From Escherichia phage 236Ecol005PP: a stretch of DNA of 64,000 nucleotides. The notes under the pieces are model-generated. The model saw only the letters and a program-made list of their open reading frames with translations. It did no database searches and was not told the DNA's origin. Where the stretch lies: the sequence record PP434423.1. One strand, 5' to 3'. The translations under genes were made by a program, and so were the position numbers. Within the stretch, counting starts at the first letter, position 1. Each line of letters starts with the position of its first letter. This document shows, piece after piece, positions 475-64,000 of the stretch.

Positions 475-888
475 TTAGTAAATTGATTTACCATAGTATT
501 TGTACCAAGTAGGGCGTTGAGCAATTTTTTCATCTAAGCGAGCTTGACTTATCGCAATGGACGCTTCGGACGGGACATAATTATTACGAAATTCGACAGG
601 GATGTCGGAAATATCCTGGACAGTCGTGTCCTTGATTTTGAAACCACGTTTCAAACATTCAGCGATTAGCTCGATTTGACGTAAACGTAAAAATTCGAGT
701 TTGTCGTAAAAGAATGTTACGTGACCTGTGCCTAAGATAAATGTTGGAGAGATTTTAAAATCCTTTACACGTTTACCGTTTTGAACATGTTTACGGACTG
801 CACCAAATACGCGTGGTAATTCACGATACTCAGCCATAAGATGTTGGTCGGTCAATTCAGAAACAAGTGTTAAATTGATACGGGTCAT
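475..888 (-). CDS. denV: endonuclease V, pyrimidine-dimer DNA glycosylase/AP lyase
   Basis: [12 protein letters not shown]...[11 protein letters not shown]... matches T4 EndoV as recalled; ATG at 888 with GGAGG RBS (track start at 900 is TTG). Confidence 0.9.
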
Positions 889-891
889 AAT

Positions 892-939
892 TTCCTCCAA
901 GTAGTCGATGAATGTATAGTATCAAAACCCTTGGAGGAA
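892..939 (-). promoter_or_regulatory. inverted repeat TTCCTCCAA/TTGGAGGAA able to sequester the denV RBS in read-through RNA
   Basis: 9-bp perfect inverted repeat; downstream arm contains the GGAGG Shine-Dalgarno. Confidence 0.45.
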
Positions 940-945
940 GTAAAC
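916..945 (-). promoter_or_regulatory. T4-type early promoter for denV (-35 GTTTAC, -10 TACTAT)
   Basis: GTTTAC-N18-TACTAT on minus strand, located inside the inverted repeat. Confidence 0.5.
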
Positions 946-6491: not shown

Positions 6492-6501
6492 TAAATTAAA
6501 T

Positions 6502-6575
<74 letters not shown>

Positions 6576-6581
6576 AAACTT

Positions 6582-6668
6582 TGGTACGAGAAGTGGGACT
6601 CGAACCCACAAGGAAATCATTCCGCAGCATTTTAAGTGCTGTGCCTTTACCAATTTGACCATTCTCGC
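6582..6668 (-). tRNA. tRNA-Leu (anticodon UAA), long variable arm
   Basis: anticodon arm CAGCA-CTTAAAA-TGCTG; T-arm GTGGG-TTCGAGT-CCCAC; encoded CCA. Confidence 0.8.
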
Positions 6669-6669
6669 G

Positions 6670-6742
6670 CTGGGAATAAAGGACTCGAACCTTTGCATCT
6701 AGCAGTCAAAGTGCTATGCCTTATCAACTTGGCTAATTCCCA
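6670..6742 (-). tRNA. tRNA-Gln (anticodon UUG), CCA not encoded
   Basis: anticodon arm TAGCA-CTTTGAC-TGCTA; T-arm AAAGG-TTCGAGT-CCTTT. Confidence 0.75.
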
Positions 6743-6811
6743 ATTATTAACAAAGGCTCTCAAGCAAGAACCCTTGATGATAGAGGGTATTAATCAGTGC
6801 GATATGAGTTA

Positions 6812-6835
6812 ATAATAACAAATAATTCTTAAAGC
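6812..6835 (-). promoter_or_regulatory. middle-type promoter (MotA box TGCTTTA, -10 TATTAT) upstream of tRNA cluster
   Basis: minus strand TGCTTTA-N12-TATTAT. Confidence 0.45.
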
Positions 6836-6839
6836 ATAT

Positions 6840-7127
6840 TTACCATTTATGATAATACATGTTTACGATGCATTCAAGACCCAAAGGATTCTTGAAAATA
6901 TCATATTCAAGAGGACCTTTTTCTGTTTCAATAAAGAAATCAAAATTTACTGTATTAAATTTACGGTCTTCCTTCACTAATTTAACTTGAGAAGATGAAC
7001 GGTCAATGTAAACCTTTTCAACTTCAAAACATGTTAAAATGCCATAATCGTCAATCAAGGCTTTAGCCGCGTCTTGATCATATTTATATCCATTTTCAAT
7101 GGATGATACTTTCGCATAAAGAATCAT
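6840..7127 (-). CDS. hypothetical protein, 95 aa
   Basis: ATG start; compact ORF between tRNA cluster and ip locus. Confidence 0.6.
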   Translation of the reverse strand: MILYAKVSSIENGYKYDQDAAKALIDDYGILTCFEVEKVYIDRSSSQVKLVKEDRKFNTVNFDFFIETEKGPLEYDIFKNPLGLECIVNMYYHKW

Positions 7128-7129
7128 TA

Positions 7130-7510
7130 TCAGCCTTCATCAACAATAGTATGCGTATTGGCATTTACGATTTGCCACCAATCAAAGCGATTAGAACCAT
7201 AATCTGGTTTGTTTTCATTTTCTTTGATAATGTCACGAAGTTCATCTTCAGTAGCGGCTTTCGCGATTAAATCAGCATATCCACCACGAGGATAATAATT
7301 ATCACCTGCAAAAAGTAAAAAGTTTGGTTTAATGTCATTGAACTCTTCAAGAGTAATAACTTTTCCTGACGGTTGAACAATCTCTACATATTTATACCCC
7401 AATTTTTGAGCAGCATCTACTGCTTCAAGCAAAGTATCATGAGCCCATCCAATTTGACAACCTGGCTTTTCAGATGGATTAGCCTGATAATCCGCATACA
7501 CTTTGTACAT
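7130..7510 (-). CDS. hypothetical protein, 126 aa
   Basis: ATG at 7510 with AAGGTGA RBS (track start 7519 is GTG). Confidence 0.6.
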   Translation of the reverse strand: MYKVYADYQANPSEKPGCQIGWAHDTLLEAVDAAQKLGYKYVEIVQPSGKVITLEEFNDIKPNFLLFAGDNYYPRGGYADLIAKAATEDELRDIIKENENKPDYGSNRFDWWQIVNANTHTIVDEG

Positions 7511-7511
7511 T

Positions 7512-7697
7512 CTATTCACCTTTAGAAATTTTATCCATAACGATAGCGATTAAACCAATTAAAAATGCTACTACAAGTGAAAACACATTTTCTGCTGTAG
7601 TTAATAATCCGCATATAAATCCAACAAACATTGAAAAACTAAAAGCGGAAGCAGAAATTGCAATAGCAACATTTCGAATTAATTCACAACGTTTCAT
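7512..7697 (-). CDS. small hydrophobic (membrane) protein, 61 aa
   Basis: ATG start; two predicted transmembrane stretches. Confidence 0.5.
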   Translation of the reverse strand: MKRCELIRNVAIAISASAFSFSMFVGFICGLLTTAENVFSLVVAFLIGLIAIVMDKISKGE

Positions 7698-7725
7698 TTT
7701 ATTCTCCTCTGTAGTTGATAGGGTA

Positions 7726-7755
7726 ATAGTATCACTACCCTATCTAAAAGTAAAC
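7726..7755 (-). promoter_or_regulatory. T4-type early promoter (-35 GTTTAC, -10 TACTAT) inside inverted repeat GATAGGG/CCCTATC
   Basis: GTTTAC-N18-TACTAT; 7-bp inverted repeat arms bracket the -10. Confidence 0.5.
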
Positions 7756-7767
7756 TGTTTTTATAAA

Positions 7768-8076
7768 CTATTTTATTCCGCGTGATGCAATTGTATTCTG
7801 TCGTTTAGCACCAGTTTGTTTAAAGTCATGATTGTCGATTTGATCGGTACGAGCAACTCCGAATGATGATTTAATCTTAGCTTTAGATCCTTTAGTTATA
7901 GAAATAAACATCTCGGAAGCCCCTTTCTTAAAGTCCGAAGCAATTACTTCAACACCGTTCTTAGCAAGTGACTTCAGAATTGCCTCCGCGTATTCATCGT
8001 CAAGACTCGCCTGAGTATTAATAACGAATGTCTTTGGCGCAGCCGCTTCATTGATAAATTCTTTAAATGTTTTCAT
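7768..8076 (-). CDS. internal head protein (ip family), 102 aa
   Basis: N-terminus MKTFKEFINEA = CTS; ATG start. Confidence 0.7.
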   Translation of the reverse strand: MKTFKEFINEAAAPKTFVINTQASLDDEYAEAILKSLAKNGVEVIASDFKKGASEMFISITKGSKAKIKSSFGVARTDQIDNHDFKQTGAKRQNTIASRGIK

Positions 8077-8106
8077 TTTATTTTCCTAATTAATTTTGAT
8101 GAGATA

Positions 8107-8136
8107 ATAGTATCACTACCCTATCTAAAAGTAAAC
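8107..8136 (-). promoter_or_regulatory. T4-type early promoter (near-copy of the 7726-7755 element)
   Basis: atagtatcactaccctatctaaaagtaaac repeated; GTTTAC-N18-TACTAT on minus. Confidence 0.5.
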
Positions 8137-8409
8137 TCATTTTAAATAAATTGCGTATTTTTTATAGCCACCAGGCTCGTGTCGAAGACCCCTATCATTA
8201 GCAAAACGCTCAATGTTGTTAATTTGATTCTGGTCAAGTTCAGAGATGTCAAACACGAAATAGTTACGTTTGTTACCAACTGTTACATAGTCAGTTAAAT
8301 CAATACCATATAGGTAATTGATGTCAGCAATCATAGTCTTGACAGCTTTGCTAATTTTTACTTTTTCGTTAAAAGTAGCTTCATTGATAAATTCTTTAAA
8401 TGTTTTCAT
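8137..8409 (-). CDS. internal head protein (ip family), 90 aa
   Basis: N-terminus MKTFKEFINEA = CTS; ATG start. Confidence 0.7.
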   Translation of the reverse strand: MKTFKEFINEATFNEKVKISKAVKTMIADINYLYGIDLTDYVTVGNKRNYFVFDISELDQNQINNIERFANDRGLRHEPGGYKKYAIYLK

Positions 8410-8442
8410 TTTATCCTATCACTCATTTGTTTTGATATGGTA

Positions 8443-8472
8443 ATAGTATCACAACTAAAACCCTGTGTAAAT
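8443..8472 (-). promoter_or_regulatory. T4-type early promoter (-35 TTTACA, -10 TACTAT)
   Basis: third copy of the ggtaatagtatcac motif upstream of an ip gene. Confidence 0.45.
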
Positions 8473-8484
8473 AACTTTGTGAAA

Positions 8485-9181
<697 letters not shown>

Positions 9182-21125: not shown

Positions 21126-21130
21126 CTTAA

Positions 21131-21153
21131 GGGAGCCCATGGGCTCCCTTTTT
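21131..21153 (+). terminator. rho-independent terminator after gene 8
   Basis: GGGAGCCCATGGGCTCCC followed by TTTTT. Confidence 0.7.
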
Positions 21154-40456: not shown

Positions 40457-40471
40457 TCTTTGACGATTTAA

Positions 40472-40500
40472 GGGACCTTCGGGTCCCTTTAGTTGTTTTT
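40472..40500 (+). terminator. rho-independent terminator after gene 23
   Basis: GGGACCTTCGGGTCCC followed by T-rich tract. Confidence 0.7.
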
Positions 40501-41823: not shown

Positions 41824-41829
41824 AACAAA

Positions 41830-41850
41830 GGGACCGAAAGGTCCCTTTTT
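41830..41850. terminator. bidirectional terminator between gene 24 (+) and rnlB (-)
   Basis: GGGACCGAAAGGTCCC flanked by T-run on plus and A-run upstream. Confidence 0.7.
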
Positions 41851-55960: not shown

Positions 55961-55964
55961 CAAT

Positions 55965-55993
55965 GGGGACCTTTCGGTCCCCATATTTTTATT
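55965..55993 (+). terminator. rho-independent terminator after gene 54
   Basis: GGGGACCTTTCGGTCCCC followed by ATATTTTTATTT. Confidence 0.7.
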
Positions 55994-56287: not shown

Positions 56288-56330
56288 CCTCATGTTATGT
56301 CAGTAAGATTACTATAACACAACATGAGGG
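56288..56330 (-). promoter_or_regulatory. inverted repeat CCTCATGTT/AACATGAGG able to sequester the alt.-3 RBS
   Basis: 9-bp perfect inverted repeat; downstream arm includes SD GAGG. Confidence 0.45.
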
Positions 56331-56340
56331 ACTTGTAAAC
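56311..56340 (-). promoter_or_regulatory. T4-type early promoter (-35 GTTTAC, -10 TATAGT) embedded in the hairpin
   Basis: GTTTAC-N18-TATAGT on minus strand. Confidence 0.45.
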
Positions 56341-63121: not shown

Positions 63122-63158
63122 TTTTATTCTCCGAGATGTTTAATTGCGGTACAGGTAT

Positions 63159-63187
63159 ATAATATCATATCCTGTACCAAAGTAAAC
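63159..63187 (-). promoter_or_regulatory. T4-type early promoter (-35 GTTTAC, -10 TATTAT) bracketed by inverted repeat GGTACAGG/CCTGTACC
   Basis: GTTTAC-N17-TATTAT; 8-bp inverted repeat arms at 63149-63156 and 63171-63178. Confidence 0.5.
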
Positions 63188-63522: not shown

Positions 63523-63550
63523 TTTATTCTCCTTTGTTTGTGTAAGATAA

Positions 63551-63579
63551 TACTATTACAAAGGAACCATACTGTAAAC
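63551..63579 (-). promoter_or_regulatory. T4-type early promoter (-35 GTTTAC, -10 TAGTAT) bracketed by TGTAA/TTACA
   Basis: GTTTAC-N18-TAGTAT on minus strand. Confidence 0.4.
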
Positions 63580-63597: not shown

Positions 63598-63627
63598 GAA
63601 AATAAAAAAGGACTCCCGAAGGAGTCC
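63598..63627 (-). terminator. rho-independent terminator
   Basis: minus GGACUCCUUCGGGAGUCC followed by UUUUUUAUUUU. Confidence 0.7.
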
Positions 63628-63632
63628 TCAAC

Positions 63633-63809
63633 TTATGCTTTCTGCTTACCAAAACGAGAAGCATCATCTCGAAGAACCGCACGTGCTCGGCGCATGATCT
63701 TCTCAACAGTTTGATTGATACGAGAGTTCGACCCACGCTTGTAACCAGCGCGTTTAGAATCACCAACTTTCTTTTCAACTGCTTTCTTTGCTTTAGCTTG
63801 TTTTGCCAT
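63633..63809 (-). CDS. small highly basic protein, 58 aa
   Basis: ATG 63809 (M15 of track ORF 63633-63851); MAKQAKAKKAVEKK..., Lys/Arg-rich; terminator directly downstream. Confidence 0.5.
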   Translation of the reverse strand: MAKQAKAKKAVEKKVGDSKRAGYKRGSNSRINQTVEKIMRRARAVLRDDASRFGKQKA

Positions 63810-64000
63810 TATAAATTCTCTTTTAAATGAAAATGCAGGACTTATTGGCATTGCCTGCGCAAGCCCTCAAGGGGAACATAGGTTTTGGATATTTAACGAC
63901 AGGATAACCATAAACCCGTCATCATACCTTATAGCTCTTATCTGTTGCACACCGTTAGCTTAAAGGTTCCGGGTCCGATTTCTCGAGGATAAGATATATA

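Follow-up and report, generated by a model that had tools for sequence, protein, structure and literature searches.

In the T4-like Escherichia phage 236Ecol005PP, the -10 hexamer of an early promoter at positions 7717-7755 lies between the two arms of an inverted repeat, and this locus raises the question of whether such a repeat is an accident of base composition, a structure formed in the DNA, or a structure formed in RNA. The stretch analysed here, hereafter the window, comprises 64,000 nucleotides of sequence record PP434423.1 and belongs to a Tequatrovirus whose early genes are encoded by the minus strand. Over positions 6500-9000 its best match is Escherichia phage HMD-9 (98% identity), and comparison with the annotations of HMD-9 and T4 placed the repeat (site 1) in an ipI-type internal-protein (IP) locus with the gene order 57B, two IP-like genes, a trna.4-like 61-aa ORF, trna.3, trna.2 and the tRNA cluster. 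Site 1 is found between an IP-like gene, which begins with the leader MKTFKEFINEA, and the trna.4-like gene. The two IP-like genes, of 102 aa (7768-8076) and 90 aa (8137-8409), stand in tandem on the minus strand and have this leader in common, the remainder of their sequences being unrelated; in content the locus differs from that of T4, which has a single ipI.

Early promoters were defined by pattern (GTTTAC-N17/18-TAnnnT) together with SD, ATG and ORF context, because the T4 RefSeq and GenBank records carry no promoter features. The scan is incomplete, T4 P(cd.2) having been missed because of its alternative start codon. Loci of the trna.4 and 30.7 homologues were retrieved by protein; exact-match scans of gene starts gave too few loci.

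Read on the minus strand, site 1 is GTTTAC-tttta-GATAGGGTA-GTGA-TACTAT-TACCCTATC-aactaca-GAGGAG-aataaa-ATG, and its parts are as follows.

7750-7755, minus strand: GTTTAC, the -35 of the early promoter that serves the trna.4-like 61-aa ORF, the same promoter as T4 P(trna.4)
7736-7744, minus strand: 5' arm GATAGGGTA, in the promoter spacer, upstream of the predicted start site
7726-7735, minus strand: hairpin loop, which is the extended -10, GTGA (7735-7732) plus TACTAT (7731-7726)
7717-7725, minus strand: 3' arm TACCCTATC, at positions about -6 to +3
7695-7709, minus strand: SD GAGGAG (7709-7704) and ATG (7697-7695) of the trna.4-like gene, outside the hairpin

The arms GATAGGG(TA) and (TA)CCCTATC that the first-pass annotation had noticed around TACTAT were recovered by a repeat search as a perfect 9-bp repeat, 100% complementary with its arms 10 nt apart, and neither arm touches the SD. 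From sigma-70 geometry, transcription is predicted to start at about 7719, inside the 3' arm, and the 5' arm, being upstream of that position, would be carried only by read-through RNA. The read-through leader folds as RNA at -16.4 kcal/mol (z = -3.2), with GUG/UAU wobble (G·U) pairs lengthening the helix to 12 bp and leaving an AUAC tetraloop. On the upstream side a stop codon and an AT-rich stretch adjoin the -35 (TAG tttataaaaaca GTTTAC). No known RNA family was detected in 7300-8700, even at E <= 1.

Further early promoters of the window lie within hairpins, and two of these, which belong to the 30.7 and 30.8 homologues of T4 genes (sites 2 and 3), had been cited by the first-pass annotation as recurrences of the same geometry at 63149-63178 and 63541-63560.

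63148-63187, minus strand: site 2, promoter of the 30.7 homologue, with its -35 at 63187-63182
63178-63171 and 63155-63148, minus strand: site-2 arms GGTACAGG and CCTGTACC, around the -10 TATTAT (63164-63159)
63530-63579, minus strand: site 3, promoter of the 30.8 homologue, with its -35 at 63579-63574 and -10 TAGTAT at 63555-63550
63565-63558 and 63537-63530, minus strand: main repeat of site 3, TCCTTTGT and ACAAAGGA, the 3' arm lying over the SD AAGGAG
56289-56340, minus strand: early promoter in the hairpin CCTCATGTTGTGT / ACATAACATGAGG, with the SD under the 3' arm (class B, see below); -23.4 kcal/mol, z = -3.8
886-945, minus strand: early promoter in the hairpin TTCCTCCAAG / CTTGGAGGAA, with the SD masked (class B); -21.1 kcal/mol, z = -3.2

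Site 2, whose sequence is identical to that at T4 position 129918, bears out the recurrence: arms of 8 bp enclose TATTAT at 63148-63178 with a 15-nt loop, the RNA fold is at -20.1 kcal/mol (z = -4.7), and the stop codon TAA and the -35 are separated by 2 nt (TAA tt GTTTAC). For site 3 the recurrence stands only nominally, since the arms originally noticed, TGTAA/TTACA (63560-63556 / 63545-63541), are just 5 bp long and absent from the minimum-energy fold (-11.1 kcal/mol, z = -1.5), which instead uses the TCCTTTGT/ACAAAGGA helix that covers the SD. The statement that the repeats do not act by simple SD occlusion is correct for sites 1 and 2, whose 3' arms stop 19-26 nt ahead of the ATG, but not for site 3, for the promoters at 56340 and 945, or for about one third of all stems, in which the SD is masked. 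Sites 2 and 3 flank 30.8 and 30.7, so that here too small variable ORFs are flanked by promoter copies.

Perfect inverted repeats are common in this DNA. The window holds 72 of at least 8 bp (loops of 3-25 nt), compared with 34 ± 6 in dinucleotide shuffles, and a lone repeat of 8-9 bp is not rare by itself; of the 72, four lie within early-promoter leaders, which number roughly nine and together account for about 1% of the window. In T4, 16 of 32 GTTTAC promoters with SD/ATG/ORF context have a spacer-leader duplex with z < -2, and when left and right halves were re-paired the observed mean was reached in 0 of 2000 permutations. In a pooled set of 214 unique promoters, taken from T4, from the window and from contigs of IMG/VR, z < -2 was found in 38%, compared with 5.4% of 92 T4 promoterless gene starts scored with the same geometry (Mann-Whitney p = 1.6e-13 for spacer-leader pairing), and a duplex energy at or below -15 kcal/mol in 24% compared with 0%. 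The phages that supplied the promoter sets are related, and the sets are not wholly independent of one another. Viral contigs were also scanned with the pattern GTTTAC-N14-GTGATACTAT, from which the arm positions were left out; perfect stems of at least 7 bp were present in 28 of 76 promoter contexts, in 0 of 21 chance matches outside an RBS context, and in 7.9% of mismatched halves. The enrichment around GTTTAC promoters, for which the first-pass annotation had suggested a statistical test, therefore exceeds chance by permutation, by comparison with control starts and in the arm-free scan.

The arms vary between phages and pairing is retained. Promoters of trna.4 homologues in T4-like phages carry GATAGGGTA/TACCCTATC, ATGGGATA/TATCCCAT, (G)TAGGACTA/TAGTCCTA(C), AGGGTTAT/ATAACCCT or GGGCT-TA/TAGCCC, and in two phages they have SD-masking class-B arms, ATCTCCATTTG/CAAATGGAGAT. 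T4 has GATGAGGTA/TACCTCATC ahead of ipI, which amounts to two compensatory pairs relative to the window arms, and a shifted ATAGGGT arm ahead of trna.4. At the 30.7 homologues GGTACAGG is kept and the stem is lengthened to 11-12 bp or contains a G·T. Covariation was measured in an ungapped alignment of 73 GTGATACTAT-type promoters, across which the 10-mer GTGA + TACTAT is invariant. In the site-1 register covariation was 0.275, against 0.188 ± 0.017 in column shuffles (none of 500 reached the observed value) and 0.11-0.16 when the partners were slid off register, and the number of cells changed on both sides was 94 against 56 ± 8; a separate register for GGTCTAT-type stems was weakly supported in this fixed alignment. 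The absence of conservation at orthologous promoters that the first-pass annotation had named as fatal to its proposal was thus not what we found: pairing is kept where arms differ. Its argument that differing arms speak against a single sequence-specific repressor is upheld, since the arms of different promoters are unrelated and co-vary, which excludes such a repressor and indicates that pairing itself is retained. A common operator or palindromic protein site was rejected, no half-site recurring across promoters. The repeats around the -10 are real and non-random, and their base-pairing is kept.

Sixty-six unique strong stems separate into two classes by the position of their arms, which in both occupy promoter positions without consensus. 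Class A (43 stems, sites 1 and 2 included) has a median stem of 9 bp and a median loop of 11 nt; the 5' arm stops just short of the TGn motif, abutting GTGA and the -10, and the 3' arm begins directly past the -10 and ends at about +3, some 21 nt before the ATG. Class B comprises 23 stems, those of site 3, 56340 and 945 among them; its 5' arm comes after the -35 and its 3' arm overlaps the SD, with loops whose interquartile range is 19-28 nt and whose maximum is 40 nt. The start site, taken as 7 nt past the -10, is predicted to fall inside the hairpin in both classes, and therefore the promoter's own RNA would lack the 5' arm and be unable to form the hairpin. Class-A arms are also strongly polar in composition: over the 43 class-A promoters (T4, window and IMG/VR), G outnumbers C by 144 to 27 in the 5' arms and C outnumbers G by 139 to 27 in the 3' arms. 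This may reflect a preference for C just upstream of the start site in T4-like early promoters, with the spacer evolving to complement it. In IMGVR_UViG_2974754850 and at T4 position 2458 a local hairpin lies wholly within the spacer (CCACAaggaTGTGG), with no repeat bracketing the -10.

Imperfect stems provide a means of telling RNA from DNA. Were the structure symmetric in the duplex, as in a cruciform or a protein-bound palindrome, G·T and A·C mismatches should be equally frequent on the sense strand. When stems were scored with an equal penalty for every non-Watson-Crick pair, the sense strand showed 12 internal G·T mismatches, along with 2 T·G, 2 G·A, a single C·A and no A·C, a bias that rests on about 10-12 independent events and to which a sense-strand C-to-T mutation bias could contribute. 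The G·T excess argues for an RNA hairpin in read-through transcripts and against a cruciform or operator. Among the three structural roles put forward in the first-pass annotation (cruciform, single-strand hairpin, or RNA structure in read-through transcripts) the last is consequently best supported, with G·T and T·G together at 14 against a single C·A, and the cruciform lacks support.

In the IP locus the promoter and its stem-loop form a 49-nt cassette that is present three times, as a direct-repeat family, around the two IP-like genes.

7715-7763, minus strand: cassette copy 1, which contains site 1
8096-8144, minus strand: cassette copy 2, at 90% identity to copy 1, which provides the promoter for the 102-aa IP-like gene
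8432-8480, minus strand: cassette copy 3, promoter of the 90-aa IP-like gene, with a variant -35 (ATTTAC) and degenerate arms

Copy 2 matches the site-1 cassette exactly over the stretch that runs from the -35 to the end of the -10, and thereafter has an ipI-type 3' half. Because of this switch past the -10 its arms are chimeric (GATAGGGTA / TATCTCATC, 8098-8125) and do not pair, and the hairpin is largely lost (z = -0.25). This chimera, and the reassorted arms of other phages, would fit a crossover in the loop. At 8131-8139 the TGA stop of the 90-aa IP-like gene directly touches the -35 GTTTAC of the next promoter; a ribosome terminating at such a stop, or at that of site 2, would extend as far as the 5' arm, and in this way the opening of the hairpin could be coupled to upstream translation. 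A separate observation concerns the T4 record NC_000866, which notes that 14 nt at 133300-133313, at the early promoter Pe133295 (cd.2), are the inverted complement of the sequence previously reported. These 14 nt are exactly the loop TTGTGATATTATAG, which holds the -10, between the arms GGTAGAG and CTCTACC; either an old sequencing artefact at the hairpin or a real inversion of the loop between its arms would explain the discrepancy.

A consensus scan found no terminator-like sites in 7400-8600. A U-tract (at least 5 T in 8 nt) follows 0 of the 43 class-A stems, whose tails are A-rich, and the stems are themselves AT-rich (43% GC). Sites 1 and 2 were rejected as canonical intrinsic terminators, having neither a U-tract nor a GC-rich hairpin. 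One canonical terminator does occur close to site 3.

63608-63629, minus strand: canonical intrinsic terminator, GC-rich hairpin GAGGACTCC-TTCG-GGAGTCCTT followed by the U-tract TTTTATTTT

It sits 25 nt upstream of the 30.8 promoter, and the presence of a textbook terminator near P30.8 means that, at places of termination, the phage uses terminators of the canonical kind. As no terminator stands in between, the IP-locus promoters and P30.8 would be expected to read into trna.4 and 30.7. This terminator is one of two U-tract hairpins (63608-63629 and 63655-63671, minus strand) between a 72-aa ORF (63633-63851) and the 30.8 promoter, the second of which falls within the ORF, at its end. GC-rich perfect repeats of the type AAGGGACC/GGTCCCTT, with 4-nt loops, recur where the window carries late genes, at 21129-21150, 40470-40489, 41827-41848 and 55963-55984; these are probably late-region terminators or RNA stability hairpins.

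How, then, might the repeats be accounted for? That they are accidental products of an AT-rich genome and a promoter consensus might be thought from the 34 ± 6 perfect 8-bp repeats expected per shuffled window, and from a third example that turned out to be 5 bp long in a region folding at z = -1.5, but the enrichment, permutation, control-locus and covariation tests reject this explanation, and we give it practically no credence. A repeat centred on the -10 also invites an explanation at the DNA level, in which initiation is modulated, as in early-promoter shut-off, either by extrusion of a cruciform or hairpin or by the binding of a protein that is structure-specific or dimeric; how T4 early promoters are shut off is unknown, and the DNA hairpin folds have z values of about -3.4 to -5.7. 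As DNA, however, these hairpins reach only -7 to -8 kcal/mol, and for arms of 8-9 bp with loops of 10-15 nt such energies are unfavourable for extrusion. The arms are entirely different between promoters, which leaves no shared operator, the mismatches are asymmetric between strands, and the pairing of class-B stems with the SD over loops of up to 40 nt would be sensible only in RNA. Cruciform extrusion, as raised in the first-pass annotation, is judged unlikely from the short arms, the 10-15-nt spacers, the low energies and the strand-asymmetric mismatches, and a DNA-level role of any of these kinds appears very improbable.

Two further explanations draw on functions that have been proposed for elements of this kind. 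The hairpin might stop or reduce polymerase arriving from upstream, as a terminator or attenuator, so that each cassette would be mainly self-driven; this is the function favoured by the authors who described promoter/stem-loop elements (PeSLs), one of whose RB49 stem-loops cut lacZ expression as strongly as rrnB T1, and the hairpins here do directly follow upstream stop codons. Against it stand the A-rich tails without any U-tract in class A, the empty consensus scan, the AT-rich stems, and the use of a canonical GC-rich hairpin and U-tract 25 nt upstream of the 30.8 promoter, and we regard it as quite unlikely. Alternatively, the repeats may matter for recombination only: repeated PeSL-like promoter cassettes of about 50-70 bp would shuffle small accessory genes by virtue of conserved sequence, perhaps with hairpin or strand-switch events, perfect arms being kept by templated (quasi-palindrome) correction and not by selection, with no role in RNA or transcription. 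The three cassette copies around two IP-like genes, the chimeric middle copy with its junction at the loop, the reassortment of arms among IP-locus promoters of other phages, the mapping of PeSL crossovers to the loop or the -10-to-ATG interval and the T4 cd.2 loop once reported inverted all agree with shuffling of this sort. Recombination requires homology but not dyad symmetry, however, and does not explain why the same geometry appears with unrelated arms at about half of T4 early promoters, single-copy ones included, why the 3' arm is so frequently identical with the SD, or why the mismatches are of the G·T kind on the sense strand instead of being symmetric. As the whole explanation it seems to us unlikely, if less so than termination.

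The reading that we prefer, with a probability of about 0.6, is that the repeats encode RNA hairpins present only in transcripts that come from upstream promoters. Early intergenic regions of the T4 type, at about 60-70 nt, are nearly filled by the UP element, -35, TGn/-10 and SD, and the arms occupy the only sequence-free stretches, namely the spacer and positions -6 to about +3; confined to these, they leave the extended -10 as the loop and the predicted start site in the 3' arm. We infer both the existence of read-through RNA and the position of the start site. RNA started locally would then be unstructured for want of the 5' arm, and read-through RNA would bear the hairpin. In class B the 3' arm is the SD and read-through RNA would be poorly translated, a logic equal to that of T4 e, soc, 49 and I-TevI with an early promoter replacing the late one. 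In class A the hairpin, which has no U-tract, sits past the upstream stop codon and ahead of the next SD, where by analogy with the PeSL proposal it might serve as an intercistronic 3' structure of the upstream cistron, that is, as an exonuclease barrier, pause site or attenuator; candidate roles for class A are a 3' boundary or stabiliser of the upstream cistron, or weak attenuation. This class-A function is the least secure part of the reading, since these hairpins leave the SD unmasked and do not resemble intrinsic terminators. At the DNA level, the repeated promoter/hairpin cassettes would as a by-product be recombination substrates that shuffle small genes such as those for IPs. Such a repeat is missing from half of the T4 early promoters, and IP loci retain chimeric cassettes whose arms do not pair; promoter function can therefore do without the hairpin, on which selection may be weak.

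That a start site within a hairpin is a general T4 device by which early promoters distinguish local from upstream RNA is a tentative idea against which we would place the odds. If it were true, each cassette would be insulated, its read-through RNA being either untranslatable (class B) or a structured 3' boundary (class A), and cassettes, being autonomous in expression, could be shuffled freely; the G·U signature on the sense strand would also be the first sequence-level evidence of selection on RNA and not on a DNA repeat. Such cassettes are thought to drive the modular shuffling of accessory and anti-defence genes, for example those of internal proteins, in T4-like phages. A repeat acting as RNA would clarify how packed, overlapping early transcription units stay independent, and would also explain why cassettes can be moved about while their neighbours stay undisturbed. 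Annotators should label the repeats neither terminators nor operators, and in phage engineering the insertion of a gene at such a junction would alter the structure of read-through RNA.

An early promoter with an overlapping inverted repeat was reportedly described by Repoila and colleagues in 1994. The feature studied here is already known, being the PeSL or IP-locus promoter-inverted-repeat cassette (Repoila 1994; Arbiol 2010; Comeau 2014), an identity that the first-pass annotation had missed. PeSLs were defined in RB49 and phi1, where they are concentrated in hyperplastic regions and consist of an intergenic AT-rich stretch, sigma-70-like -35 and -10, a stem-loop, an SD and an ATG (Arbiol 2010, PMC2839356). 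In RB49 the stem-loop is mostly between the -35 and -10 or overlaps the -10, G-T pairs occur in stems, the one stem-loop tested for termination, a G/C-rich one, behaved as a strong terminator, and crossovers have been located to the loop or to the interval from the -10 to the ATG (PMC2839356). According to the same paper (PMC2839356), PeSL-like elements had been seen in the flanks of T-even IP genes by Repoila et al. 1994, and these T-even elements are T4 early promoters with weaker AT-rich stem-loops, analogues of PeSLs and not homologues. PeSLs have also been catalogued for the T4/PST pair, with a -35 of TTTACW and a -10 of TAYWAT (Comeau 2014, PMC4122927).

All the parts of a PeSL are found here: the promoter, SD and start codon of a small gene, the overlapping stem-loop and the upstream AT-rich stretch, and here too repeated copies flank small variable ORFs in hyperplastic regions. 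The T-even IP-locus elements are alike in their ipI-type locus, in being a repeated cassette and in joining a T4 early promoter to a weak AT-rich stem-loop; nothing essential is different, and site 1 is another allele. RB49 PeSL stems, in contrast, are polyG/polyC and one of them terminates, whereas T-even stems are AT-rich and without U-tracts. In the PST/T4 PeSLs the stem-loops are placed "just upstream" of the promoter (figure legend of PMC4122927) and here they bracket the -10, and the emphasis of the PeSL authors is on terminator and recombination roles, not on a start site within the hairpin. The present analysis adds a quantification, by which about half of the early promoters of T4 are affected, the division of stems into classes A and B, the observation that T-even class-A stems lack terminator features, and the strand-asymmetric wobble that points to RNA. 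In the literature searched, the early-promoter generalisation and the class A/B split are unstated, although Liebig & Rüger 1989 and Miller 2003 may contain them, and no genome-wide maps of T4 5' and 3' ends were found.

With intrinsic terminators the present hairpins share a position right after a stop codon, but they differ in having no U-tract, an AT-rich stem and a loop of 10-15 nt. The T4 genes e, soc, 49 and I-TevI offer a closer comparison in mechanism: there the promoter lies inside a hairpin that masks the RBS, so that only promoter-proximal RNA is translatable. As in those genes, the promoter here is in the region of the 5' strand, and with the start sites predicted above long transcripts would be structured and proximal ones not. 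An SD within the 3' strand of the helix is likewise found at site 3, 56340 and 945, but not at sites 1 and 2. The promoters of e, soc, 49 and I-TevI are late promoters (TATAAATA) that serve temporal control, whereas those described here are of the early type, GTTTAC-N17/18-TAnnnT.
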